NCBI GenBank assembly: GCA_026195275.1
Contig: JAPHQU010000004.1
Location: 3,119 to 67,118, forward strand
DNA from: Minisyncoccota bacterium
GTDB taxonomy: Bacteria > Patescibacteriota > Minisyncoccia > Phycocordibacterales > JABMNX01
DNA length: 64,000 nucleotides
Direction of reading: 5' to 3'
Each line of letters begins with the position of its first letter. The stretch's first letter is position 1. Made by a program: the position numbers and the translations under genes. Under the pieces are notes generated by a model, which saw nothing but the letters and a program-made list of their open reading frames with translations, had not been told where the DNA came from and made no database searches. This document shows, piece after piece, positions 1 to 57,882 of this stretch.

Positions 1-91
1 CCTTCCAGGTGATGGTCCACACCATAAGGACGAGAAACAGAAAAAAGAATAGTGAGCTTTCTGTGTGCATACCAAAGAATAATTGATTCAT
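1..91 (-). CDS. N-terminal fragment of a hydrophobic (membrane) protein; runs off the window
   Basis: Reverse strand ATG at 91..89 giving MNQLFFGMHTESSLFFFLFLVLMVWTITWK..., a hydrophobic N-terminus, truncated by the window edge. Confidence 0.3.
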   Translation of the reverse strand, partial: MNQLFFGMHTESSLFFFLFLVLMVWTITWK

Positions 92-7393: not shown

Positions 7394-7463
7394 TAGAACG
7401 CAATTTGCATTGCGTTCGTGCCATTGTGCCAGGCGGAGGCATGTCCCGAGCTGTGAGAGGGAA

Positions 7464-7538
7464 GCCGAGCCCGGGGAGGAAGTGCTTAGCGAGATGGAGT
7501 GCGAAGCACGAACAGTGAGCTTAGCAACTTGACCCCAC
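7464..7538 (+). repeat. Copy 1 of a ~55-75 nt hairpin-forming repeat (GCCGAGCCCGGGGAGGAAGTGCTTAGCGAG...GCTTAGCAACTTGACCCCACA)
   Basis: Three related copies at 7464, 7580 and 8021 share GAGYCCGGGGAGGRAGTKCTTA...GCTTAGMAACTYGACCCC. Confidence 0.7.
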
Positions 7539-7579
7539 AAAGCTCTAGAAACCTGACGCCCAGGTAAAAAATGAAAACA

Positions 7580-7640
7580 GGCGAGCCCGGGGAGGGAGTT
7601 CTTAATGAGCGTAGCGAATTTAGAAACTCGACCCCACACA
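7580..7640 (+). repeat. Copy 2 of the same repeat family
   Basis: GCGAGCCCGGGGAGGGAGTTCTTAATGAGCGTAGCGAATTTAGAAACTCGACCCCACACA. Confidence 0.7.
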
Positions 7641-7835: not shown

Positions 7836-7908
7836 GGTGCCTATGGTGTAACGGTTAACACGGGGGTTTGTGGAACCCCAAATTCGAGTTCGATTCTCGG
7901 TAGGCACC
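7836..7908 (+). tRNA. tRNA-His (anticodon GTG) with encoded G-1
   Basis: G-1 + GTGCCTA acceptor pairing with TAGGCAC + C73; anticodon stem GGGGT/ACCCC with loop TTGTGGA; T-arm TCGAGTTCGATTCTCGG. Confidence 0.85.
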
Positions 7909-7910
7909 CA

Positions 7911-7958: not shown

Positions 7959-8020
7959 CGGTACATACTAGAATCGAAAGACGGAGCCAGTACACAAGAC
8001 GAGCGGAGCGAGGGCTTGTC

Positions 8021-8075
8021 GGCGAGTCCGGGGAGGAAGTTCTTAGCGAGCCTGCGAGCTTAGAAACTTGACCCC
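8021..8075 (+). repeat. Copy 3 of the repeat family, directly abutting a duplicated tRNA-His 3' end
   Basis: GGCGAGTCCGGGGAGGAAGTTCTTAGCGAGCCTGCGAGCTTAGAAACTTGACCCC, followed immediately by GATTCTCGGTAGGCACCCAA. Confidence 0.7.
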
Positions 8076-8095
8076 GATTCTCGGTAGGCACCCAA
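8076..8095 (+). repeat. 20-nt direct repeat of the tRNA-His 3' end (GATTCTCGGTAGGCACCCAA): att-site-like duplication
   Basis: Identical to 7889..7908 inside the tRNA-His gene. Confidence 0.7.
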
Positions 8096-20405: not shown

Positions 20406-23400
20406 ATGATTATGAAAAACGACCCTGGAAAGGCTCCCGAGGAGAAGAGTGGTGTTGCAAAGCGTGAGGAGGGGGTCCTCGCATTTTGGCATACAAATAA
20501 TGTCTTCAAGAAATCCGAAGAAAAACCGGCACCAAAAGGAGAATATGTCTTTTACGATGGGCCACCGTTTGCGACCGGGCTTCCGCACTACGGTCACTTG
20601 CTTGCGAGTACTATTAAAGACGCGATACCACGCTACCAGAGTATGCGTGGTCATCGGGTCGTGCGTAAGTGGGGGTGGGACTGCCACGGGCTTCCTCTTG
20701 AGAACGAGATAGAAAAGGAATTGGGTCTTACGACCAAGCGAGACATCGAGAGTCTGGGTATTGCGAAGTTCAATGAAGCGGCGCGCGATGCGGTGCTTCG
20801 CTATGCTGACGATTGGAAGAAGATCATACCGCGGATGGGGCGGTGGGTCGACATGGAGAGCGACTACAAGACCATGGATACCTCGTACACCGAATCGGTG
20901 TGGTGGGTATTCAAAACGCTCTACGACAAAAAAAGTATTTACCAAGGGTTCAAATCAATGCACCTTTGCCCACGTTGTGGCACCACACTCTCGAACTTTG
21001 AAGTGAATCAAGGATATAAAGATACAACCGACATCTCTGTATACGTCGGGCTTAAACTTAAAGATGAGCAGGATACGTCTCTTATTGTGTGGACTACAAC
21101 ACCATGGACGCTACCCGGCAACATGGCAGCGGCAGTGAACAAGGATGTCGAGTACGTCACAGTCGAGAAAAAGGATGAAGGTGGACTCACTCGCTTTATT
21201 GTCGCAAAAGATAAACTCAAAGATGTTTTCGGTGATGATGAATATACCATCGTCGATACATACAAAGGTGAGGAACTTATCGGCAAATCGTATATCCCGC
21301 CGTTTGATTACTACAAAGATAAGAACATCGAGCATAAAGAGAACGCGTGGAAGGTTTACCACGCAGACTATGTTTCAGTTGAGGATGGAACCGGTGTGGT
21401 GCACCTTGCTCCCGCTTTCGGTGAAGAGGACCTAGTGCTTGCTCAACAAGAGGACATCCCGGTCGTACACCACGTAACACCGGAGGGTGTATTTGCACAA
21501 GAAGTGTCTGACTTTGCTGGTATGTTTGCAAAGCCAAAAGATGACCCGCTTGCAACTGATATCGAGATCATTAAGGCGCTCTCCGCGCGCGGCGCGCTCT
21601 TTAAAAAACAGAAGGTAACACACAGCTATCCGTTTTGTTGGCGTTGTGATACGCCGCTTCTTAACTATGCGACATCGTCGTGGTTTGTACGCGTAACTGA
21701 TTTTAAAGACAAGCTTGTTTCAGAGAACAAAAAAGTTGGGTGGATTCCAAAAGATGTCGGCACACATCGATTCGGCAACTGGCTTGAGAATGCACGCGAT
21801 TGGGCGATCTCACGCTCGCGCTATTGGGGCGCACCACTACCGGTATGGCTAAACGAGAAAGAGGAAAAAGTGCGGGTCATGGGATCAGTCGAGGACCTGA
21901 AGAAATATATTGCATCTTCAGGTAATACCTACTTTATGATGCGTCACGGCGAGGCGGTACATAACACTAAGAACACACTGAACGCAAAGGACTCAGTGGA
22001 GAATCCGGTGACGGAAGAAGGAAGGAAACAAGTGTATGAAGCGGCCAAGCTCTTTAACGGAAAGAGCATTGACCTAATCATACACTCTCCATTACAGCGG
22101 ACGCGCGAGACAGCTGAGCTTCTTGCGTCTGAACTCAAGCTCCCTGGATCACAACTTCGCGAAGATGCCCGCCTCACGGAAGTAAATGTCGGGTTGTTTG
22201 AAGGGAAGACAATTGATGAGTACCACGCGTTCTTTGCTGACTCGCGAGAGCGTATGAGTAAGCGACCCGAAGGAGGAGAGAATTGGGGTGAGGTCAAACG
22301 ACGTGTGAGTGAGGTGCTCTACGAGCTCGAGCGAGAATATAAAGATAAAAAGATATTGATCATCTCGCACAACGGACCACTTGAGATGATTCAAGCGGGT
22401 GCGCTCGGGTATGATGTTGATCAATGCGGGGAAGCGATCAAAGATAATCGTTTTGACATGTCGGTCGGCGAGGTGCGTAAACTTCCGTTCATACCGCTTC
22501 CGCATAATACTCTGTTTGAGCTTGACCTACACCGTCCATACATTGATGAGATCACTCTTATTGATACAGACGGCAGCGAGTTGAAACGGATTCCTGATGT
22601 GTTTGACTGCTGGTTTGAATCTGGCTCCATGCCGTACGGGCAGCAGCACTATCCATTTGAGAATACTGATGTCTTCGAGCCAAAGAGCGGATGGTTCAAA
22701 CGAGCGAAAGGCTACCCGGCGGACTTTATCGCGGAAGGAATGGACCAAACGAGAGGCTGGTTCTACTCGCTCATTGTCCTTGGCGTCGGGCTCTTTGGTC
22801 ACTCCCCATACAAGAATGTGATTGTGAACGGTCTCGTGCTTGCGGAAGATGGTCGCAAGATGAGCAAGCGACTCAAGAACTATCCTGATCCGGCATATAT
22901 TTTAAACACCTATGGAGCTGATGCGCTTCGCTACTACCTTCTCTCATCACCGATTGTTCGCGGGGAAGACCTCAATTTCTCTGAAAAGGGTGTTGATGAA
23001 GTGATGAAGAAACTCTTGGTGCGTCTTGAAAACGTATATTCGTTTTATGCACTCTACGTCGAGGATGGAACAGTGCCACAAAGCGTGGCCAGCAAGAATA
23101 TTCTGGACCAGTGGATTCTCTCACGACTCAATGAACTCACTCTTGAGATAACCGGTGCGATGGAACGCTATGAGCTCGACCGCGCGACGCGTCCGATCGG
23201 ACTCTTTATTGATGATCTTTCGACGTGGTATATACGCCGCTCACGTGAGCGCTTTAAGAGCAATGATGTGGAGGATCGTGCGCATGCTCTTGAGACAACG
23301 CGCACTGTTCTCATGGGGCTCAGTAAGGTCATGGCGCCATTCATGCCATTTTATGCGGAAGCACTCTACCAGGAGCTCAAAAAAGAGGACGATCTGGAGA

Positions 23401-23930
23401 GTGTACACCTCTGCGAGTGGCCTGAGGCAGGGAAGAGTAACAAGGAGGCGCTTGAAGATATGGCAGTGGTGCGCCGGCTCGTATCGCTCGGCCTCGAAGC
23501 TCGCGCTAAAGCGGGCACGAAGGTGCGTCAGCCGCTTGCGGAGCTCAAAGTTAGAAGTGAAAAGTTAAAAGGAAAGATGAAACTTCTCGAACTAATCGAG
23601 GACGAAGTGAATGTGAAGAAGATCTCGTTTGATACCTCGCTATCAGAAGAGGTTGAGCTCGACACCGAGCTCACCGATGAGTTGAGACAAGAAGGACTCG
23701 TACGCGATCTTATCAGGCGTATCCAGCAGTTTAGAAAAGAGAACGACCTTACACCGCAAGAGAAGGTGGCAATTATCATCGATACTGATGAGCACCTTAA
23801 GGAAGCGTTTGTGGGCGCGAAGACTGAGATTATGAATGCGACGCTTCTCTCAGACCTCACTTTTGGTTTTGTAGAAGGAGAGAAGGAGACCGTTGACGGG
23901 CATCCGTTTGCGTTCTCACTTAGTAAGTAG
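20406..23930 (+). CDS. ileS: Isoleucyl-tRNA synthetase with an in-frame inserted histidine-phosphatase (PGM-like) domain
   Basis: PPFATGLPHYGHLL (HIGH), TTPWTLPGN (CP1 editing) and KMSKRLKN (KMSKS) are present. An extra ~170 aa lies between the CP region and DLHRPYIDEITL; it contains RHGEAVHN, SPLQRTRETAE and ISHNG motifs. Confidence 0.9.
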   Translation: MIMKNDPGKAPEEKSGVAKREEGVLAFWHTNNVFKKSEEKPAPKGEYVFYDGPPFATGLPHYGHLLASTIKDAIPRYQSMRGHRVVRKWGWDCHGLPLENEIEKELGLTTKRDIESLGIAKFNEAARDAVLRYADDWKKIIPRMGRWVDMESDYKTMDTSYTESVWWVFKTLYDKKSIYQGFKSMHLCPRCGTTLSNFEVNQGYKDTTDISVYVGLKLKDEQDTSLIVWTTTPWTLPGNMAAAVNKDVEYVTVEKKDEGGLTRFIVAKDKLKDVFGDDEYTIVDTYKGEELIGKSYIPPFDYYKDKNIEHKENAWKVYHADYVSVEDGTGVVHLAPAFGEEDLVLAQQEDIPVVHHVTPEGVFAQEVSDFAGMFAKPKDDPLATDIEIIKALSARGALFKKQKVTHSYPFCWRCDTPLLNYATSSWFVRVTDFKDKLVSENKKVGWIPKDVGTHRFGNWLENARDWAISRSRYWGAPLPVWLNEKEEKVRVMGSVEDLKKYIASSGNTYFMMRHGEAVHNTKNTLNAKDSVENPVTEEGRKQVYEAAKLFNGKSIDLIIHSPLQRTRETAELLASELKLPGSQLREDARLTEVNVGLFEGKTIDEYHAFFADSRERMSKRPEGGENWGEVKRRVSEVLYELEREYKDKKILIISHNGPLEMIQAGALGYDVDQCGEAIKDNRFDMSVGEVRKLPFIPLPHNTLFELDLHRPYIDEITLIDTDGSELKRIPDVFDCWFESGSMPYGQQHYPFENTDVFEPKSGWFKRAKGYPADFIAEGMDQTRGWFYSLIVLGVGLFGHSPYKNVIVNGLVLAEDGRKMSKRLKNYPDPAYILNTYGADALRYYLLSSPIVRGEDLNFSEKGVDEVMKKLLVRLENVYSFYALYVEDGTVPQSVASKNILDQWILSRLNELTLEITGAMERYELDRATRPIGLFIDDLSTWYIRRSRERFKSNDVEDRAHALETTRTVLMGLSKVMAPFMPFYAEALYQELKKEDDLESVHLCEWPEAGKSNKEALEDMAVVRRLVSLGLEARAKAGTKVRQPLAELKVRSEKLKGKMKLLELIEDEVNVKKISFDTSLSEEVELDTELTDELRQEGLVRDLIRRIQQFRKENDLTPQEKVAIIIDTDEHLKEAFVGAKTEIMNATLLSDLTFGFVEGEKETVDGHPFAFSLSK
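21920..22480 (+). other. Inserted histidine phosphatase superfamily domain (branch 1, phosphoglycerate-mutase-like) within ileS
   Basis: Catalytic RHG(E) ... SPLxRTxETA ... (I)SHNG motifs in the right order and spacing for a complete PGM-like fold. Confidence 0.75.
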
Positions 23931-36588: not shown

Positions 36589-38844
36589 CTACCCTCGTCC
36601 TCTTTCGCCTGATTCATTCTCATCAACGTTCTCATAATCTTCTTCCTCTTCGGTGTCATAGTCTTCTTCTGGCGCTTCGTAGGACTCTTCAGTATCGTCT
36701 GTGCCGACAAGAATATCGCGCGGTTTTGAACCGTCTGCTGAGCCGATCACACCGCGCTCTTCAAGCATGTCCATAAGGCGCGCGGCACGCGCATAGCCAA
36801 CTCGAAGTTTTCGCTGGAGGTATGAGGTTGATGCTTTGCCCGCTTCAACAACGACATGGTACGCGTCTTCGTAGAGGTCGTCTTCGTCGTCGCTACCGTC
36901 AATCGTCGTCGCGAAGATCGAGTTGTCACCCTTTGCTTCGGTGAGATCGATTTCGCTTGGGAGTTCGTCTTCATAGTTTTTAGCGAGGAAATTTGCAACC
37001 TTCTTCACTTCATTCTCTGAGAGGAATGGTGACTGGATGCGGCGCGGCTTCGACATCTCGCCGGAGAGGTAGAGCATGTCACCGGCGCCGAGAAGCTTCT
37101 CGGCGCCGCCGGTATCAAGGATGGTGCGTGAGTCGATCTGGCTCGCGACCTGAAGCGCGATACGGGTCGGTACGTTTGCTTTGATAAGCCCGGTAATAAC
37201 CTGGACTGACGGACGTTGTGTCGAGAGGACAAGGTGGATGCCGACCGCACGGCTCATTTGAGCAAGGCGCACAATACCAGCCTCGAGCTCTCGTGGGTAG
37301 GTCTGCATAATGTCCGCGAGCTCATCAACAACAACGACGATATAGGGCATTGGCTCAGGCATCTCTTCTTCAGAAAGGTTTTTCTTCACTGCAGGTGCGA
37401 CCACGTTCTTGTGGTATGAGGCAATATCGCGCACCGACTCTGACTCAAGGATGTCGTAGCGTCGATCCATCTCGTTTGCGAGCCACTTGAGCGCAAGAAT
37501 AGTCTTCTTTGCATCAGTAATGACCGGAGTAAGGAGGTGTGGGATGTTTTTGTAGAGGGTAAGTTCAACACGCTTTGGATCGACCATTATGAGGCGGAGA
37601 TCCTGTGGTGACTTGCGGTACAGTAACGACATGATGAGGTTGTGGATCATCACCGACTTACCAGAGCCGGTGGTGCCGGCAATCAAGACGTGCGGCATCT
37701 TTCCTAGATCAGCAAAGTGCGATTCTCCGGTGATGTCGCGACCAAGTGCGACGAGGAGCGGTTTGTCGGTATCTTTGAAGTCACTTGCCGACAGAAGGGA
37801 AGCGAGCCCAACGGTTGATTTTGAATGATTTGGCACCTCGATACCCACGAGCGACTTGCCGGGGATTGGTGCCTCAATACGCACCGGGTGCGCAGCGAGG
37901 GCGAGTTCGAGATTATTTTGGAGTGTGAGGATCTTTGAGAGGCGTACACCTTCGGCGGGCTTAAGCGCGTAGCGGGTGACTGTCGGCCCGACAGATATTT
38001 CATCCATCTCTACGTTAATGCCAAAGTTCTGTAGCGTACGCTTGATGATGTTTGCGTTTGCTTTCACATCACCAACATCAGGCTTGCCTTTGTCTTTCTC
38101 GAGGAGTGAGAGTGGGGGAGTCTCGTAGTCGCCGTAGACCGGGTAGACTGATATCTCACCCTTTTTCTTACTGAAGCCAAACATACCTCGCTTCGGCTCG
38201 TCTTCAACCTCTTCATCTTCTTCTTCGTATTCTTCCTCATCTTCGTACTCCTCTTCAGGCTCATCTTCGTACTCCTCATCTTCGTCTGCGTAGGTCTCGA
38301 CATCGTACTCCTCATCTTCTTCTGTGGCTTCATCCTTACGTGAGAGGAGGCGTGAGAGGAGTGGAAGGGAAGACGGAGTTGGGAGGAAGTCGAACATAAT
38401 AACGAGCGAGAGAAGAGTGACCACTACGAGCACCAAGACGCTCGCATAGGTATCAAAGAGTGCGATAAGTGGCAGTCCAATAAAATGCCCCAAAATACCG
38501 CCGCGGCCGGGGAGTGCGATATCGATAAGCCCAAGTCCGGAAAAAAGAAACAAGACAGCGCTGATGATCTTAAGTGGTCCGTATGCATGCTCTAAGTCAC
38601 GAAAGAACGATGTCGCAAAGAAGAGGAGCACTGCTGGCAGCAGGAAGTAGCCAACACCGAGAAGGAATGAGAGTCCGCTGTAGGTCATCTCCCCTGCGAT
38701 CCCGGCAAGGTTGAATGCGGCAAGAATAAAGAAGAGCGTGACCGAGAGGAAGACGATGCCCCAGATGCCGCGGACAGTCTCTTCTTTTAGTTCAGCAAAA
38801 ATATTTGAATATTCGGATTCCTTTTTCTTTTTTTTTGGTGCCAT
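36589..38844 (-). CDS. ftsK: DNA translocase FtsK/SpoIIIE with a highly acidic linker
   Basis: N-terminal TM region, acidic linker EEDEEYDVETYADEDEEYEDEPEEEYEDEEEYEEEDEE, motor domain with GTTGSGKS Walker A, and a C-terminal gamma wHTH. Confidence 0.9.
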   Translation of the reverse strand: MAPKKKKKESEYSNIFAELKEETVRGIWGIVFLSVTLFFILAAFNLAGIAGEMTYSGLSFLLGVGYFLLPAVLLFFATSFFRDLEHAYGPLKIISAVLFLFSGLGLIDIALPGRGGILGHFIGLPLIALFDTYASVLVLVVVTLLSLVIMFDFLPTPSSLPLLSRLLSRKDEATEEDEEYDVETYADEDEEYEDEPEEEYEDEEEYEEEDEEVEDEPKRGMFGFSKKKGEISVYPVYGDYETPPLSLLEKDKGKPDVGDVKANANIIKRTLQNFGINVEMDEISVGPTVTRYALKPAEGVRLSKILTLQNNLELALAAHPVRIEAPIPGKSLVGIEVPNHSKSTVGLASLLSASDFKDTDKPLLVALGRDITGESHFADLGKMPHVLIAGTTGSGKSVMIHNLIMSLLYRKSPQDLRLIMVDPKRVELTLYKNIPHLLTPVITDAKKTILALKWLANEMDRRYDILESESVRDIASYHKNVVAPAVKKNLSEEEMPEPMPYIVVVVDELADIMQTYPRELEAGIVRLAQMSRAVGIHLVLSTQRPSVQVITGLIKANVPTRIALQVASQIDSRTILDTGGAEKLLGAGDMLYLSGEMSKPRRIQSPFLSENEVKKVANFLAKNYEDELPSEIDLTEAKGDNSIFATTIDGSDDEDDLYEDAYHVVVEAGKASTSYLQRKLRVGYARAARLMDMLEERGVIGSADGSKPRDILVGTDDTEESYEAPEEDYDTEEEEDYENVDENESGERGRG

Positions 38845-38880
38845 CTCTTAGATTTTATTATGAGTGAAGCGAATTAAAAA

Positions 38881-38951
38881 ATCTTAGACCCCGTGAAATG
38901 CGCCGGCTCGCCGGCGCACCTCCGCCCAAAGGCGGAGGATTTCACTGGGGG
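38881..38951 (-). ncRNA. Conserved structured leader module in the ftsK 5' UTR (three-way-junction-like; paralog of the rplJ leader module at 50916..50975)
   Basis: On the ftsK sense strand: CCCCAGUGAAAUCC-[hairpin]-[hairpin]-GCAUUUCACGGGGUCUAAGAU. The outer 11-bp stem and flanks are identical to the rplJ copy; inner hairpins differ but still pair (covariation). Confidence 0.55.
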
Positions 38952-38978
38952 TTGGTTCATGTTTTATACAGATTTTCA

Positions 38979-38990
38979 TCGATTATACCA
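38979..38990 (-). promoter_or_regulatory. Extended -10 promoter (TGGTATAAT) for ftsK, ~28 nt upstream of the leader module
   Basis: Minus-strand sequence ...TCGTGGTATAATCGATG... No good -35. Confidence 0.4.
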
Positions 38991-44430: not shown

Positions 44431-44466
44431 CGTTGCCATTTCTCCCTTCTCACACACCTTCCACAA

Positions 44467-44495
44467 AAATCTTGACGTCGGACGTCAAGATTTTT
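44467..44495. repeat. REP-like palindrome copy 1: AAAATCTTGACGTCGGACGTCAAGATTTT
   Basis: Perfect 11-bp inverted repeat around a central G, with A/T flanks. Four copies lie within 2 kb around a RAYT gene. Confidence 0.8.
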
Positions 44496-44589
44496 GTACA
44501 TGAAGGGTGGTTAAGGGTGATTTTGTGTGCATTGCATGGCGCGTGCGTTTCCCATACAATGTCTTCATATGTTCAATCAGGAAAACACT

Positions 44590-45354: not shown

Positions 45355-45547
45355 GAAGATGAAACCGCTTACAAACACAACCTTCTTCAAATTCCTCTTC
45401 GGCTTTCTTGCGCTGCTTTTCTTGAGCTTCATCATAACCGGCGCTGTCGCCCACTTCGCAGGGGACAGTGTCGACCCGGCCACTCAATCTGCCTGCGACC
45501 AAGGCAGCGACTGTTGATCCGCTCTGCTTCATTACCTTATTTCACAC

Positions 45548-45576
45548 AAAATCTTGACGTCCGACGTCAAGATTTT
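45548..45576. repeat. REP-like palindrome copy 2 (central C, i.e. opposite orientation)
   Basis: AAAATCTTGACGTCCGACGTCAAGATTTT. Confidence 0.8.
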
Positions 45577-45635
45577 TTCTTCCCTTTCTATTATGAAGAT
45601 ATCAGCTAGGTATTAACTGTAGGATATGTCTAATC

Positions 45636-46328
45636 TTATTCCAGAGTAATTCCTTCCAACTCGCTCATTATGGACCTGGACTTGAGCAATGCGCGCATTT
45701 GTTTTTCATAGCCCTCCTCGCCCCCGAGGAGATCAAGAAAGAACTTTCGATCTGTGATAGAGGGAAAATTCTTTTTTCCTAAGTAGTCGGAATGACTCGA
45801 CCAACGATATGATTGTAGATACTCCTCTGCTTCTCTACAGTTTGAAAGACTTCCTTTACGCCACTTTGGCATATTTAGATCAAGTGGGTTGAAGTGTATG
45901 TAAAAAGGAAGATAGAGAAAGTGTGCATCAGTGGCAATTTCGACCTTTTTATATTTTCCTTGCCACAGTGCGCCGTTACGTTCGTATTTTTCATTAAATG
46001 CTTTGGTGTATCCGCCACCGAGTTTTTTCATGAATAGCGACAAATTTTCCATATCATCATCAATAGGGGAGACAAGAAGATGGTAGTGATTCGGCATTAA
46101 ACAGAAACAATGAATCTGCACCACTGGCTCGCGTCTTTTTTTCCAAGAATCTTGACGTCGGACGTCAAGATTCTCTGATGATGCAAGGTGGTGTTTGGTC
46201 AGTCCGTTCGAACTTTGCTTATTGTTGAATTCATATAAATCGTGCAAGAACCGCACGCGATCCTTGTCGTTAAGGAAAACCTTTCGTTTATCAACGCCGC
46301 GGTTATATACATGAAAGAAACGCGTCAT
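45636..46328 (-). CDS. REP-associated tyrosine transposase (RAYT; IS200/IS605 TnpA-like Y1 HuH)
   Basis: Motif I FHVYNRG, HuH motif MPNHYHLLV, and catalytic region GALWQGKYKKV...YIHFNP...SYRWSS. Confidence 0.8.
   Translation of the reverse strand: MTRFFHVYNRGVDKRKVFLNDKDRVRFLHDLYEFNNKQSSNGLTKHHLASSENLDVRRQDSWKKRREPVVQIHCFCLMPNHYHLLVSPIDDDMENLSLFMKKLGGGYTKAFNEKYERNGALWQGKYKKVEIATDAHFLYLPFYIHFNPLDLNMPKWRKGSLSNCREAEEYLQSYRWSSHSDYLGKKNFPSITDRKFFLDLLGGEEGYEKQMRALLKSRSIMSELEGITLE
46147..46173. repeat. REP-like palindrome copy 3, located in frame inside the RAYT coding sequence
   Basis: GAATCTTGACGTCGGACGTCAAGATTC, translated in the RAYT frame as ENLDVRRQDSW between motif I and the HuH motif. Confidence 0.75.
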
Positions 46329-46447
46329 ATAAATAACTCTAGCATGATATACACAGCATAATTGAGCTATCTATTAACACAGATGCTTGATGTGATGGGT
46401 ATAATGCCTAATACGAAATAAAACGAAATAAAATCTTGACGTCCGAC

Positions 46448-46476
46448 GTCAAGATTTTTTGTGAGTTATGAACATC
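46448..46476. repeat. REP-like palindrome copy 4 (central C), upstream of RAYT
   Basis: AAAATCTTGACGTCCGACGTCAAGATTTT. Confidence 0.8.
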
Positions 46477-50654: not shown

Positions 50655-50683
50655 TTGACTCTCAGAACCGGCTCGGGTACTAT
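50655..50683 (+). promoter_or_regulatory. Sigma-70-like promoter for rplJ-rplL (TTGACT-N17-TACTAT)
   Basis: Near-consensus -35 and -10 hexamers with 17-nt spacing, implying a ~330-nt 5' leader before rplJ. Confidence 0.55.
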
Positions 50684-50689
50684 GCTATG

Positions 50690-50835
50690 CACTGGACTGA
50701 AGACAGCAGGTGCCGGGAGAAAACGGCTCAATATCCTGCCGAGGCAAGGTGCCCCAACTTGGGGTGCTCCCTTCAGACCATTTTGGTCGATAGAGAACCT
50801 GTTCGCGAGCGATAGCGAGCGTTACTGGTTCTTAA
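50690..50835 (+). promoter_or_regulatory. Candidate L10(L12)4 autoregulatory leader region (structured; CTGAAG...CTTCAG enclosing stems)
   Basis: Position between the promoter and rplJ. Long nested helices: CUGAAGACAGCAGGUGCC...GGUGCUCCCUUCAG. Identification is by context only. Confidence 0.35.
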
Positions 50836-50837
50836 CC

Positions 50838-50895
50838 CTATGAAATGTGTCGCACAGCGACACGCTTCCGCACCAAGGCGGAAGATTTCATCAGG
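50838..50895 (+). ncRNA. Leader module copy (degenerate): UGAAAU-[GUGUCGCacaGCGACAC]-[CUUCCGCaccaaGGCGGAAG]-AUUUCA
   Basis: Same architecture as the module at 50916..50975, arranged in tandem. Confidence 0.45.
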
Positions 50896-50915
50896 GTAGT
50901 GAATTTAAATCCAAA

Positions 50916-50975
50916 CCCCAGTGAAATCCTGCGCCGTAGGGCGCGGGTGCGTCGCCAAGGCGTCGCATTTCACGG
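50916..50975 (+). ncRNA. Conserved structured leader module in the rplJ 5' UTR (paralog of the ftsK leader module)
   Basis: CCCCAGUGAAAUCC-[GCGCCguaGGGCGC]-[GGGUGCGUCGCCAAGGCGUCGCAUUU]CACGGGGUCUAAGAU. 22-nt and 15-nt flanks are identical to the ftsK copy. This is followed by a hairpin (ATTCGTTACactcGTAACGAAAT) and then AAUCUAAGA-AUG. Confidence 0.55.
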
Positions 50976-51020
50976 GGTCTAAGATTTCGTAATTCGTTAC
51001 ACTCGTAACGAAATCTAAGA

Positions 51021-51512
51021 ATGGCAAAAACAAAACAACAGAAAACAGAAACACTTGAGCAGCTCACTGACGCGGCAAAGAACGCCGGTTCAGTAGTATT
51101 CGTGAACTTTCACGGACTTGGTGTCTCAGAAACCAACGAGATGCGTAGCGCACTCAAAGACGAGGGTGTGACGTATCTTGTGGCAAAGAAGACACTCACG
51201 AAGCGTGCAATCGCGGATGCTGGGGTTGAGGGTGAGGTGCCGGAGCTTGAGGGCGAGCTCGCACTTGCGTGGGGTGACGATCAGATCGCACCGGCGCGTG
51301 GTGTGCAAGAATTTGCCAAGAAGCATAAGGACAGCCTCTCGATCCTCGGTGGTATCTTTGAACACCGACTTGTAGGGAAAGAGGAGATGATCACTATCGC
51401 TTCAATCCCGTCCCTTCAGACGCTTTACGGACAGTTTGCAAATGTCATCAATTCCCCAATCCAGGGATTTGTATTTGCGCTTAACGCGATCGCGGAGAAG
51501 AAGGAAGCATAA
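51021..51512 (+). CDS. rplJ: Ribosomal protein L10
   Basis: 163 aa; L10 pattern and position upstream of rplL. Confidence 0.85.
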   Translation: MAKTKQQKTETLEQLTDAAKNAGSVVFVNFHGLGVSETNEMRSALKDEGVTYLVAKKTLTKRAIADAGVEGEVPELEGELALAWGDDQIAPARGVQEFAKKHKDSLSILGGIFEHRLVGKEEMITIASIPSLQTLYGQFANVINSPIQGFVFALNAIAEKKEA

Positions 51513-51545: not shown

Positions 51546-52061
51546 ATGTCAGACGAAGAAAAGAAGGTAGACGAGCAGGAAGCGGAAGCACCTGCTGAGG
51601 AGCAGAAAGAAGAAGCTCCTGCTACGGAAGAAAAAAAGGAGGAGGTATCTGTTGAGGCTCCTGCAGAAGACGCAGGGGAGGAGGTAGAAGTTCCTGAGAA
51701 ATTCAAGAAGCTTATCGAAGAGGTTGAGAACATGACCGTTCTTGAGCTTCACGAGCTCGTAAAGACACTTGAAAAGAAGTTTGGTGTTTCAGCGGCAGCA
51801 GTCGCGGTAGCCGGACCGGCAGCAGGTGGCGAAGGAGCTGGTGAGGAGCAGAGCGAGTTTACTGTTGAGCTTTCGGCAATTGGAGACCAGAAGATTGCGG
51901 TCATTAAGGCAGTTAAAGAAATTCTCGGACTCGGACTCAAGGAGGCAAAAGATCTCGTTGAGAGCGCCCCAGCCGTACTTAAGGAGGGTGTAAAGAAGGA
52001 AGAGGCAGAGGAGATTAAAACAAAGGTGGAAGAAGCTGGTGGAAAGGTAGAATTGAAGTAA
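51546..52061 (+). CDS. rplL: Ribosomal protein L7/L12 with a ~50-aa acidic N-terminal extension
   Basis: C-terminal domain [68 protein letters not shown]. The N-terminus is E/K/A-rich. Confidence 0.9.
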
Positions 52062-53818: not shown

Positions 53819-54955
53819 GCATAGGGTCCATAAAGAGGGAACCGCACCCTGTTTGTAGGACGCGGCACCAGTTTGCTTCGCTTCAGGTGGCTTCTTGTGA
53901 TTCTCTAAGAATTTCTTTCGCTTGCTTTAGTGTTGTGAGTCCTCCTGAAAGAACCCCACCATCTCACAAGACGGAAGTGTCTTTCTTTAGAGAGTGTTAT
54001 GTAGACTGCGCCTCCCTTGAATGCCATGAAGCTGGTGCACGGTATATTCTAAGGGTCCGAATACTCAGGAATAGCACGGTGTCAGCTGGGTTGTTGACTC
54101 AAAAACCCGCCTCGTGTATACTGCTGTCTACGTGATTATGAGTATTGATTTGAAGAACACCAACAAGCGGGGGCGCTAGCCGGGGCATCGACTCATGACT
54201 AACGCAGCCGCGATCTCGCGGTTTTTTTCTTGCCTTCACTCATAACTGACATCACGAGAACTTTGACAACGTCATAGGATCCATCTGGTCGGAGAGACTA
54301 GGCGGATCCGCAGGTAAAAACAAACCAAGACTAAAACTAAATGTTTACGTGCCGCTGTAAGCAAGCGGCACACACGAGTGTGGCTATGGTTATACTCGTG
54401 TAGCGGTTTTTAGATTTCCTGATAGGAGATCTAAGAGCGTGTGGTGGATACCTAGACTGAAAAAGGCGATGAAGGACGTGGCATGTCTGCGATAAGCTTC
54501 GGTAAGGTGACTAGCAACCTTTGACCCGGAGATTTCCGAATGGGGGAACCCGGCCGACTCTGTCGGTCACCTTTCTACTTGATAGAAGGGAGCGCACCCG
54601 GGGAAGTGAAACATCTCAGTACCCGGAGGAGAAGAAACCAATAGGAATTCCCGTAGTAGCGGCGAGCGAACTGGGACGAGCCCAAACTCGATTTCACCTC
54701 TACCATCTGTGTTTACACAGGTGCTAGAGGTGGTATCGGGGGTTGTAAGGCAACAATGTCATTTTTTCGAAAATGAGAAAAGTTACAAATTGTAATGTTA
54801 ATGGAAGCTTCTGGGAAGAAGCACCCAAGAGGGTAACAGTCCCGTACATGAAAACATATACAACTTTTTTGTTGTTGTCCTTGAGTAGCTCAAGACACGA
54901 ATAGCTTGAGTGAATCTGCCAGAACTAACTGGTAAGGCTAAATACTTTTTCAGAT

Positions 54956-54994
<39 letters not shown>

Positions 54995-56235
54995 GTCCGG
55001 TGAGGACAGTGAAATAGACTTGAAACCACATGCTTACAAGGAGTCAGAGCGGTCGCAAGACCGTCATGGCGTGCCTATTGAAGAATGAGCCAACGAGTTC
55101 ATATATGTTGCAGGCTAAGCCCTTATCGGGTGGAGTCACAGGGAAACCGAGTGTGAATAGCGCGAACCATTATGTAGCATGTATGAGACCCGAAGCTCGG
55201 TGAGCTTGCCATGGGCAGGGTGAAGTTTGTGGAAACACAGATGGAGGCCCGAACCGGGAGGTCGTTCAACGCCTTCGGATGACCTGTGGTAAGAAGTGAA
55301 AAGCTAATCGAACCGAGTAATAGCTGGTTCTCTCCGAAATAGCTTTAGGGTTAGCGTCGTGTGTTCCTGTTGGGGGTAGAGCACTGGCAGGTGTGAATAG
55401 GGGGAAACCTCGTCATTCCTATCAAACTCCGAATACCAACAGTTAATAGCGCGGCAGTTAGAGTCAGGGGGCTAAGCTCCTGTGCTCAAAAGGGAAACAG
55501 CCCAGATCCCAAGTTAAGGTCCCAAAATTCACGTTAAGTGCACTTAAGGAGGTGAGATTTCTCAGACAATGAGGAGGTTGGCTTAGAGGCAGCCATCCTT
55601 TAAAGATAGCGTAACAGCTCACTCATTCAGAGATTTCGCGCCGCAAATGATCGGGGCTAAACGTGATACCGAAACTGGGGGCTTTCCATTCATTCGTGAA
55701 TGGGGAGCGGTAGGAGAGCGTTCTGTTCTGCGATGAAGCCGAAGGGATAACCCACGGTGGAGCGTTCAGAAGTGAGAATGTTGGCACGAGTAACCGCATG
55801 GCATGTGAGAATCATGCCCGCCGAAAGATCAAGGTTTCCTTCGCGATGTAGATCAGCGAAGGGTTAGTCGGGCCTAAGCCGATCCCGAAGGGGGGAGGCG
55901 ATGGACACATGGTTAATATTCCATGACTTTACGAATATGCGATGGGATGACGGAGGGTTGTACTCTGAGCGCATTATTGGATTTGCGTTGGTGCTGTGAG
56001 GGGGTCTCTTAGGGAAATCCGGGAGACACCACCCCAAGCAGAGCGAAAATGGTGCGGTTTCGGCCAATCCAAATTCAGAGGAGCACGCTTCCAAGAAAAG
56101 TCTCTAAGCTTCAGTATTCGTAAAACCGTACCCCAAACCAACACAGGTGATCAGGTCGAGAAGACCAAGGCGAACAAGTGAGTCTTCCTCAAGGAACTCG
56201 GCAAAACAGCGACCGTAACTTCGGAATAAGGTCTG

Positions 56236-56335
56236 CCTGTGCAGCCAATAGAGGAGTTCATGAAGAAAACAAAAGATGAGACATGTCATATATGTATGCA
56301 TATACATGACAACGGGTGCAAGTGTTCGATCGAGA
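56236..56335 (+). other. Expansion segment in a 23S variable helix, closed by a perfect 14-bp helix (CAGCCAATAGAGGA/TCCTCTATTGGCTG)
   Basis: About 85 extra nt relative to E. coli between ...CUUCGG.AGAAGG... and ...ACUGUUUA.CAAAAACACAG. Contains internal palindromes. Confidence 0.5.
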
Positions 56336-56517
56336 GATCGAATCCTCTATTGGCTGCGTAGGCCGCAGCTAAAGAGCCCTGGCGACTGTTTACCAAAAAC
56401 ACAGCTCCCTGCGAACTCGTAAGAGGATGTATAGGGGGTGACGCCTGACCAATGCCAGAAGGTTAAGCACGGATGGTGTGATGAGTTTACTTGTCATGCT
56501 GGGCTGTGTAAGCCCTG

Positions 56518-56564
<47 letters not shown>

Positions 56565-57215
56565 AGTCCAGTAATTTTGGACGTGCACGAATGGTGTAAC
56601 GACTGGGGCACTGTCTCGAGGAAGAGCTTGGTGAAAATGCAATGGCGGTGAAGATGCCGCCTACCTGCAGCTAGACGAAAAGACCCCAGGAGCTTTACTA
56701 CAGCTTGATATTGGGGGTGTGAGTTGACTGCGTAGCATAGATGGGAGACTTTGAAGCGGACCTTTCGGGGATCGTGGAGTCGCCAGTGAAATACCATCCT
56801 TTCAATTTGCATTCTCTAACCTGAACGGAAAAAACGTGTAGGGACAGTATCTGGTGGGTAGTTTGAGTGGGGCGCTCTCCTCCTAAAAAGTAACGGAGGA
56901 GTCTATTAAGGTCCTCTAGGCGCGAATGGAAACCGTGCCGATAGTGTAAAGGCAAAAGAGGGCTTGACTGCAAGGGGTACATCCCGAGCAGGCGCGAAAG
57001 CGGAGCTTAGTGAACCGAGAGTTTCCTTTAGACGGAGCTCGAGATTAACGGATAAAAGTTACCCTGGGGATAACAGGCTGGTATTGCCCAAGAGTCCATA
57101 TCGACGGCAATGTTCGGCACCTCGATGTCGGCTCACCTTATCCTGGGGCTGGAGAAGGTCCCAAGGGTTTGACTGTTCGTCAATTAAAAAGGTACGCGAG
57201 CTGGGTTCAGACCGT

Positions 57216-57526
57216 TGAGAAGTTGAATTTATTTGACTTCTCAACAGTCTGAGTCCACTCTAACGACACAAAATCGAAGTCTTTTCGTTTATTCAATGAG
57301 AATTAATCAATCTAATCACGGCGGCTGGGTGTTTTCGTAACACCTAGTAAAGCTGACTTATATCGGTAAAACCCGAACCCATTCAGGGAGGGCAATACCG
57401 AGGAAACCCCGCACTTGCATGCAAGTGAAGGGGGTCCGTAGAGACTGAACGTCAGTTATCTGCACACTGTAATGGTGTGTCAGTTAAAGCTACAGTCCAA
57501 TGCACGAAGTAATTCGTGAGAACATG
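57216..57526 (+). other. Probable ORF-less group I intron in 23S rRNA domain V (near E. coli positions ~2593-2597)
   Basis: Conserved 23S sequence GGGUUCAGACCGU | ... | CGUGAGACAGGUUGGUC is interrupted by ~311 nt. The insert follows a U, ends in G, starts with a 10-bp P1-like hairpin (GTTGAGAAGT/ACTTCTCAAC), has AGACUG...CAGUCC (P7-like) and a terminal hairpin CACGAAgtaaTTCGTG (P9-like). Confidence 0.55.
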
Positions 57527-57667
57527 CGTGAGACAGGTTGGTCTTAATCTGCTGTGGGCGTCGATCTTTGAGAGGAGTTGTTCCTAGTACGAGAGGACCG
57601 GAATGAACTGACCTCTGGTGTATCGGCTGTCGCGCCAGCGGCACTGCCGAGTAGCTATGTCGGGAAT

Positions 57668-57700
<33 letters not shown>

Positions 57701-57882
57701 AACCTCAAGATAAGAGATCATAGACCCCTAGGAGATGACTAGGTGATAGGCTCTCGGTGTACGCACAGTAATGTGTTTAGCCAAGGAGTACTAATTCGTC
57801 GTACTCCTGTTAGGAAATCTGAAAATCGCTGTAAACAAAAAGTTTGTTTTTACCAACTCAAGTATTCAATGATGGGTGTTTG

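Follow-up and report, generated by a model that had tools for sequence, protein, structure and literature searches.

Why are the genes for a ribosomal stalk protein and for the division translocase preceded by the same folded leader? This question is raised by a 64,000-nucleotide stretch of contig JAPHQU010000004.1 from a Minisyncoccota bacterium (the window, by which we mean the whole stretch of DNA analyzed). Here rplJ, encoding ribosomal protein L10 (51021–51512, plus strand; Pfam PF00466, Ribosomal_L10), and ftsK (36589–38844, minus strand; Pfam FtsK_SpoIIIE, FtsK_alpha, FtsK_gamma, and FtsK_4TM) each follow a three-way-junction module, designated A and B, respectively; a third, degenerate module, C, lies next to A. 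The original prediction, made from the letters of the window, held that the modules were a selected RNA structure rather than a DNA repeat, and that they formed a cis-regulatory leader common to both genes. On the evidence given below, we consider it reasonably probable that the intact modules A and B and the decayed module C belong to a dispersed, modular, nearly palindromic repeat of Parcubacteria/Kaiserbacteria-type bacteria of the candidate phyla radiation (CPR), which possibly serves as an AUG-proximal cassette.

Modules and start-codon hairpins at rplJ and ftsK

Module A (50916–50977, plus strand) consists of the outer stem CCCC-A-GUGAAAU/AUUUCAC-GGGG and two enclosed hairpins, and can be written as CCCCAGTGAAAT-hairpin-hairpin-ATTTCACGGGG; with the trailing UCUAAGAU, it ends at 50985. 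The predicted structure was thus recovered, with the 3′ end of the module reading 50977 instead of 50975. Module B (38889–38950, minus strand) has the same outer stem as A, base for base; the inner hairpins of the two modules differ in sequence but still pair, as had been claimed: G:C is exchanged for C:G in hairpin 1 and C:G for G:C in hairpin 2, with further changes from U·G to U:A and from U·U to C:G. RNAfold returned three-way junctions for both. Moreover, a covariance model built from 35 metagenomic and viral modules only, with the window copies left out, recovered A with 40.0 bits (E 5e-7) and B with 41.4 bits (E 2.5e-7), each in the sense orientation to its own gene, so that sequence, folding, and model agree that the modules before rplJ and ftsK are real. 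The folding energies were −145.3 kcal/mol for the rplJ leader (z = −8.1) and −51.3 kcal/mol for the ftsK leader (z = −4.8), and in neither case was any shuffled sequence equally stable. The similarity detected by a repeat finder between the two regions covers 134 nt at 78% (38822–38955 versus 50911–51044), and the alignment spans the module, the start-codon-proximal hairpin, and AAATCTAAGA as far as the ATG.

Module C (50836–50896, no strand assigned) has an 11-bp outer stem around the hairpins GUGUCGC/GCGACAC and CUUCCGC/GCGGAAG. It had been described as a tandem copy of A in the same sense; the module itself was found, but its sense is doubtful. Because its bulge sits on the 3′ arm of the outer stem, C is probably an inverted copy, and the covariance model scored it marginally, at 14.8 bits (E 0.23) on the minus strand versus 8.9 bits on the plus strand. 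The string TGAAAT-N34-56-ATTTCA occurs 3 times in the window, compared with 0.21 expected, and the covariance-model search revealed no module in the 64 kb beyond A, B, and C. No Rfam family matched the element in the window at E ≤ 10, nor in 10 loci at E ≤ 1, and literature searches by topic and by sequence string returned nothing relevant on it.

The hairpin predicted immediately 5′ of the start codon, which we call P2, directly abuts the module at both genes. P2 hairpin A (50978–51020, plus strand) is formed by UCU-A-AGAUUUCGU / ACGAAAUCU-A-AGA; its 12-bp stem contains an A·A mismatch, its loop is AAUUCGUUACACUCGUA, and 0 nt separate it from the rplJ AUG. P2 hairpin B (38845–38888, minus strand; UCU-A-AGAUUUU / AAAAUCU-A-AGA, loop UUAAUUCGCUUCACUCAUAAU) is separated from the ftsK AUG by 1 nt. 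The general layout is AU-rich: a single unpaired A (or an A·A mismatch) separates 3 bp from the 8–9 bp that follow. The loop is conserved (consensus UCGCUUCGCUCAUUAA), and the 3′ strand stops at, or takes in, the first base (A) of the start codon. A degenerate inverted copy of P2 on the left side of the module makes the full element one large palindrome. In the rplJ leader, an inverted P2-type hairpin (50794–50833, plus strand; AGAACC...GGTTCT, loop GAGCGATAGCGAG) forms the left end of the insertion. The upstream GAGCGAAGCGAG box is itself an inverted P2 copy; a pseudoknot or switch pairing between this box and the P2 loop was rejected, cognate combinations pairing no better than non-cognate ones (p = 0.67). 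The sequence CTTCACTCATAA, identical to the loop of P2 hairpin B, is also found in the leader of the 23S rRNA gene (54234–54245, plus strand), giving two exact copies in the window. The P2 loop was also considered as a Nus boxA (CGCUCUUA) and rejected, since the match extends over only about 8 nt and the window's own rRNA boxA-like sequence differs.

P2-like hairpins with no adjoining module were also observed at 7463–7536, 7579–7635, and 8020–8075 (minus-strand sense), as in GGGGUCGAGUUUCUAAAUUCGCUACGCUCAUUAAGAACUC. The last of them abuts a 19-nt duplicate of a tRNA 3′ end (GATTCTCGGTAGGCACCCA at 7891–7909 and 8076–8094; tRNA at 7837–7908), and this arrangement looks like the scar of an integration at a tRNA gene.

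Insertion into existing leaders

Comparison with related genomes placed the regulatory leader of rplJ elsewhere. A sigma-70-like rplJL promoter, TTGACT-N17-TACTAT as read from the sequence (50655–50683, plus strand), resembles the 23S promoter of the window in form and lies upstream of the whole leader, and rplL (51546–52061, plus strand; Pfam PF00542 and PF16320) follows rplJ. Between promoter and modules lies an L10 leader (50679–50794, plus strand; GGACUGAAGACAGCAGG...CCUGCCGAGG...CUUCAGACCAUUUUGGUCGAU), matched by Rfam RF00557 with 34.3 bits (E 0.00068) at a permissive threshold, the gathering score being 44. The modules (50836–51020) gave no RF00557 match even at E ≤ 10. A role of the module as the rplJ regulatory leader is therefore not supported, since the L10-leader match and the conserved block both lie upstream of it at 50679–50794. 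In three related rplJ loci (L001, L002, and L003, with L10 proteins 82%, 75%, and 75% identical), the upstream block GGACTGAAGACAGCAGG...CCTGCCGAGG...CTTCAGACCATTTTGGTCGAT, also written GGACTGAAGACAGCAGG...GGTCGAT, is kept; it is followed by a U-tract and about 35 nt to the ATG, and no module was found at these loci by the covariance model at E ≤ 1. The relatives read ggtcgattttttgtttag where the window insertion begins, that is, at the position of their U-tract, and the L10 attenuator-like hairpin has no U-run here. Because the element has replaced the U-tract of the L10 leader, attenuation that relies on this tract may be disabled in the window genome.

A different repeat was observed at the same two genes in the closest relative (SRR29408775). 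An AT-rich repeat (AAAGTTATAAAGTT...) lies inside a stem of its L10 leader (L001 121–215), and the same repeat, inverted, lies upstream of its ftsK promoter at a contig end (L008 1–30). Other small repeats thus also target the rplJ and ftsK intergenic regions.

At ftsK, an extended −10 promoter (TGgTATAAT; 38982–38990, minus strand) is native, as the closest relative retains TGgTATAAT without the element. In this ortholog, the promoter and the first ~20 transcribed nt are kept, and the ATG follows after an untranslated region (UTR) of about 30 nt. None of the ftsK orthologs compared (two at 84% identity, the second of them aligned over 64% of the query, and one at 77%) had the element, and the covariance model found no module at these loci at E ≤ 1. 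By the source names of the L10 and FtsK homologs, the organism falls within the Paceibacteria/Kaiserbacteria part of the CPR. A third comparison was provided by a tuf gene on a metagenomic contig (L131), where a canonical TTGACA-N17-TACTAT promoter precedes the element; orthologs 96, 93, and 91% identical have a similar promoter and no element, as also found by model search at E ≤ 1. The EF-Tu encoded by this contig is 100% identical to one in a named Candidatus Kaiserbacteria genome.

At each of the three genes with filled and empty versions (rplJ, ftsK, and tuf), the element takes the place of the native UTR precisely as far as the ATG. These comparisons show that the element was inserted into pre-existing 5′ UTRs downstream of native promoters and, at rplJ, downstream of the L10 leader. 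We regard it as very probable that the element is a dispersed repeat inserted in this lineage, and the insertion appears recent because close rplJ, ftsK, and tuf orthologs are without the element.

The wider module family

The family was surveyed in metagenomes with the relaxed pattern CCAGTGAAAT-N30-56-ATTTCACGGG, in which only the outer arms are fixed and the interior is free. At least 120 loci were found with it, and nothing was found with a stricter pattern. Among the matches listed, interior folds with z < −2 were present in 66 of 110 distinct ones; 39 distinct matches of no more than 60 nt were clean two-hairpin three-way junctions with unrelated hairpin sequences, and 88 of 113 non-redundant ones were intergenic by open reading frame (ORF) calls. 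The junction has 0–1 unpaired nt, none of them conserved, and the inner hairpins are free in sequence. Other matches have nested or tandem related arms, for example CCCCAGTTGAAT...ATTCAACGGGG-TAAAC. When 548 kb of element-bearing loci, selected for having one copy, were searched with the covariance model, about 15 extra copies were recovered. A loose scan of viral contigs yielded one true module, present in two contigs (L017 and L027), with the same outer stem and other inner hairpins. It lies directly after a major head gene, is followed by GGGAGG and an ATG, and belongs to a Mu-like head module by PHROG matches.

Several candidate identities were rejected. Because of the Mu-like major head gene before it, the phage copy was considered as Mu-gpT-DE, but it gave no Rfam match. 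K-turn, hammerhead, and integron attC identities were discarded, as tandem G·A pairs, CUGAUGA/GAAA, and GTTRRRY are absent from the sequence. In GTDB representative genomes, which do not include the source genome, the pattern CAGTGAAATCC-N28-52-GCATTTCACGG had 3 matches in unrelated phyla, about the chance number, with poor folds or low scores. On L131, we also observed a large module (1815–2091, minus-strand sense) whose arms, CCCTGTTAAAT and ATTTAACAGGG, enclose an insert of about 250 nt with strong self-complementarity. This large module and the rpmC composite unit that comes after it form a tandem; the S10 operon of the contig is rearranged, L4 being directly followed by L29-S17-L14.

In Kaiserbacteria contigs, composite units of module plus P2 directly precede the AUG of a variety of genes: rpsL (L089), fusA (L124), tuf and rpmC (both on L131), ribE (L166), a ClpB-like gene (L125), and a probable rplJ (L144). 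In addition, an ORF on L116 whose product has an RpoC-like N-terminus is preceded, at 77 nt, by a copy of the nested type. Canonical promoters lie upstream of composite units at variable distances. At ribE, an FMN riboswitch (99 bits) and its terminator precede the element, which in turn precedes the gene; at the probable rplJ, the element comes after a sequence that matches the L10 leader weakly (35 bits, E 0.054, short of the gathering score). Given these varied genes, the promoters or riboswitches upstream, and the absence of the element from close orthologs, the element is generic with respect to the gene it precedes, and is UTR material with quick turnover.

The distance from P2 to the AUG was −1 to +1 nt in 11 of 12 composite copies, among the matches listed. 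About 10 sequence variants of the P2 arms were seen, and every one of them pairs; pairs were counted sequence by sequence because RNAalifold on a MAFFT alignment gave none, the two length classes being out of register. The arm sequences vary even between copies inside one genome (L131). Stem covariation is abundant across modules and P2. The claim of pairing conserved with free sequence accordingly stands, but the exclusion of a DNA repeat that went with it does not, as the family is dispersed and orthologs are without it.

In 42 modules, neither strand was systematically favored in stability. Orientation to flanking ORFs was 24 sense to 26 antisense over all matches and 18:19 over structured matches, among the matches listed. 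The original prediction had named hundreds of copies in random intergenic positions and orientations as the sign of a DNA repeat, and a lack of covariation at homologous loci of related genomes as a sign against an RNA role; the observations largely go that way, with many metagenomic copies in neutral orientation overall and no element at homologous loci. In the short two-hairpin subclass, there was a sense bias of 21:8 overall, again among the matches listed. This bias speaks for an RNA-level role, as do the precise junction of P2 with the AUG and the exact exchange of the native UTR, both difficult to explain by insertion alone. At one locus (L130), an inverted P2 ends in CAT and abuts a divergent ORF about 42 nt from the module, which indicates that the full element is a large palindrome able to face either way. 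Of the features that mark a structured cis-regulatory RNA, we found neither presence at orthologous loci, nor a G·U asymmetry, nor a biased orientation, nor conserved unpaired nucleotides. These data point to repeats that propagate as DNA, a subset of which is kept or selected in one orientation before start codons.

The window genome has few Shine-Dalgarno sites; a Shine-Dalgarno-like site was found at 6 of 41 window genes, and a TAnnnT hexamer, similar to a promoter −10 box, lay 6–9 nt before the start codon, where such hexamers peak, in 14 of 41. Taken together, the scarcity of the former and the start-proximal position of the latter suggest that many mRNAs of this genome may be leaderless or nearly so.

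Other features of the window were also recorded. The 23S leader (54093–54270) comprises a promoter (TTGACT-N17-TATACT), a terminator-like hairpin and its U7 run, then CTTCACTCATAA, and after it the boxA-like GAACTTTGACAAC. The 23S gene (54421–57813) exceeds the model by about 470 nt; after it come two tRNA matches, one of which, at 158 nt, possibly bears an intron, and then 5S. No 16S was found in the window. At 20406–23930, an ORF for a class I tRNA synthetase (tRNA-synt_1 and Anticodon_1) has His_Phos_1 (residues 510–674) inserted in its catalytic region.

Repeat, cassette, and rival explanations

In the reading that we prefer, the unit consists of a three-way junction of ~55–60 nt, with a conserved outer stem and free inner hairpins, and of a P2 directly abutting it, full elements having an inverted P2 on the other side. 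It would spread at the DNA level by a REP/MITE-type mechanism (REP, repetitive extragenic palindromic; MITE, miniature inverted-repeat transposable element) and would be transcribed as the last ~110 nt of a leader; retained copies would serve as a generic, portable, start-codon-proximal UTR cassette. Stacked helices of module and P2 would then present the AUG at a helix end. Such a cassette could insulate the AUG from upstream attenuators or riboswitches, or could provide a processing site from which a nearly leaderless mRNA would result, Shine-Dalgarno sites being very scarce in this genome. Genes with regulatory leaders cannot be leaderless and do carry the composite unit, hence our working hypothesis of an AUG-proximal cassette. 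That the element has some function in expression at the AUG is a realistic possibility, if a somewhat doubtful one; processing to a leaderless mRNA at the element seems quite improbable.

Several observations weigh against this reading. Among the metagenome matches listed, about 26 of 110 look like chance, and the density in the window is low, two intact modules and one decayed amounting to 2–3 copies per 64 kb. We found no mechanism of transposition, no target duplication, and no cognate transposase; the filled/empty pairs at rplJ and ftsK showed no flanking direct repeat or target-site duplication, and the palindrome that flanks a Y1 transposase in the window (AAAATCTTGACGTCSGACGTCAAGATTTT) is not the module. 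Exact abutment on the ATG is hard to obtain by random insertion alone, which argues for selection or for a targeting mechanism that we cannot name. With regard to an RNA-level role, G·U pairs numbered 7 of 983 on the sense strand compared with 12 on the antisense strand of the 42 modules, and the orientation bias of the two-hairpin subclass within 250 nt, for intergenic copies among the matches listed, was a modest 12:6 (14:4 with two short ORFs corrected).

The Y1/HUH transposase just mentioned is a protein of 230 aa (45636–46328, minus strand; Pfam Y1_Tnp, 26.6 bits with a cutoff of 23), which also matched the NCBIfam REP-associated tyrosine transposase (RAYT) with 46.8 bits, below the cutoff of 80. 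It is flanked by inverted copies of a perfect 31–35-nt palindrome, CACAAAATCTTGACGTCSGACGTCAAGATTTTTTGTGA (44465–44496, 45542–45578, 46146–46176, and 46430–46464); one copy lies inside the transposase ORF and leaves the frame unbroken, in a REP-RAYT-REP layout in a CPR genome. This palindrome and the rplJ/ftsK element resemble each other in their arms (GTCAAGATTT/AAATCTTGAC in the former, the P2 arms GTCTAAGATTT/AAATCTAAGA in the latter).

The nearest known kinds of repeat are REP elements in bacterial interspersed mosaic elements (BIMEs) or REPINs, and the modular, MITE-like Correia, BOX, and ERIC; the element fails their defining features. Like the REP/BIME-REPIN-RAYT system, it is a short, hairpin-forming intergenic repeat that is dispersed, patchy between relatives, and co-transcribed with genes, with tandem, inverted, and nested arrays, nearly all Watson-Crick stems, and a RAYT-like gene in the window. 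Classical REPs lie at the 3′ end of genes. Unlike them, the composite element abuts start codons, has no conserved GTAG-type 5′ tetranucleotide, is built on a three-way junction rather than on a simple hairpin, and has a low copy density in this window (2–3 per 64 kb), the RAYT-flanking palindromes being of a different family. Correia (Neisseria), BOX (Streptococcus pneumoniae), and ERIC are likewise modular, long-range palindromic, and located next to genes, with copies in 5′ UTRs, a position from which they can affect promoters, processing by RNase III, and the stability of the mRNA. The element differs from these in having no sequence similarity to them and, in two filled/empty pairs, no terminal inverted repeat with target duplication; its geometry, ending within 1 nt of the AUG, the CPR host clade, and the phage copy are new. 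The L10 leader RF00557 shares its 5′ UTR with module A, but it is a separate upstream element conserved where modules are absent. The element apparently represents an undescribed family, one that merits a name of its own and that adds a three-way-junction core and a start-abutting hairpin to the known kinds.

Of the alternatives, the one that survives best is a purely selfish REP/REPIN or MITE hairpin repeat, whose fold would serve its own mobilization, for example by a tyrosine (HUH) transposase acting on folded single-stranded DNA, and which would be tolerated between genes with no role in the expression of its neighbors. The patchy distribution among close relatives, the neutral orientation of the family as a whole, the strand-symmetric stems, the palindromic layout with nested and tandem copies, and the presence in the window of a REP-associated-type Y1 transposase with its own palindromes would all be accommodated. 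However, P2 lies within 1 nt of the start codon in nearly all of the independent composites (the 11 of 12 given above), and the genes that follow are essential and highly expressed; replacement of the native UTR stops exactly at the ATG in 3 of 3 filled/empty comparisons; the element is kept in very small, streamlined genomes; and the module differs from the transposase-flanking palindrome. In addition, phmmer detected no RAYT homolog next to modules in 1.4 Mb of fetched element-bearing loci, although these are short contigs and the evidence is weak. A purely selfish repeat is, in our judgment, rather unlikely.

A bolder form of the cassette idea is that the element is a portable, Shine-Dalgarno-free start cassette that CPR bacteria would move before genes unable to be leaderless, either because they are leadered or because they are internal to an operon. 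Its stacked helices would bring the ribosome to the AUG at the helix end or hold it in place there, or the base of P2 would be cleaved to give a leaderless mRNA. The closest mechanistic analogy, and it is an analogy only, is tRNA punctuation in mitochondria, where a multi-helix structure stands immediately 5′ of the AUG with no Shine-Dalgarno sequence; the helices of the element would stack to about 24 bp. Unlike tRNA punctuation, the element has no tRNA-like features and did not match the Rfam tRNA model, and its cleavage is hypothetical. We think this form unlikely; cleavage at the P2 base, if true, would be a bacterial counterpart of tRNA punctuation.

Very unlikely, in our view, is that the element acts as a DNA-level site, that is, as a cruciform or protein-bound palindrome on promoters, a bidirectional operator, or a −10-like TAAAAT 5–7 nt before the ATG. 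The palindromes are indeed strand-symmetric and Watson-Crick, the element can face divergent genes on both sides (as at L130), and TAnnnT-like hexamers, in which the genome is rich, lie in the P2 3′ arm 5–7 nt before the ATG. However, the element lies downstream of riboswitch or leader attenuators, which an internal promoter would bypass; P2 arms that differ within the L131 genome speak against a single sequence-specific protein; and no TTGACT-type −35 was found at the right spacing.

Finally, a specific cis-regulatory RNA common to rplJL and ftsK, bound by L10/L12 or another common factor and coupling stalk synthesis to division, can hardly be upheld: the module does precede both starts with one orientation and one spacing and with compensatory changes between copies, and the 12-mer of the ftsK P2 loop does recur in the 23S leader, but the homolog of the L10 leader lies upstream as an element of its own, the module is missing from the rplJ and ftsK leaders of orthologs, the junction and inner hairpins offer no conserved sequence, and the unit also precedes rpsL, fusA, tuf, rpmC, ribE, and a ClpB-like gene, with the core module before a phage gene. 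The shared leader put forward in the original prediction was therefore abandoned, modules being absent at orthologous loci and the unit preceding many unrelated genes, and we infer that the element is neither an L10/L12-binding nor an FtsK-specific regulator.

Even if it is selfish, the repeat belongs to a family undescribed by Rfam and literature searches, and one that breaks operon leaders; it will mislead motif finders into calling gene-specific regulators. Translation start in CPR/Patescibacteria is essentially unstudied, and a unit that stands at the AUGs of rpsL, fusA, tuf, rplJ, and ribE offers a testable handle on how leadered genes are handled in these bacteria.

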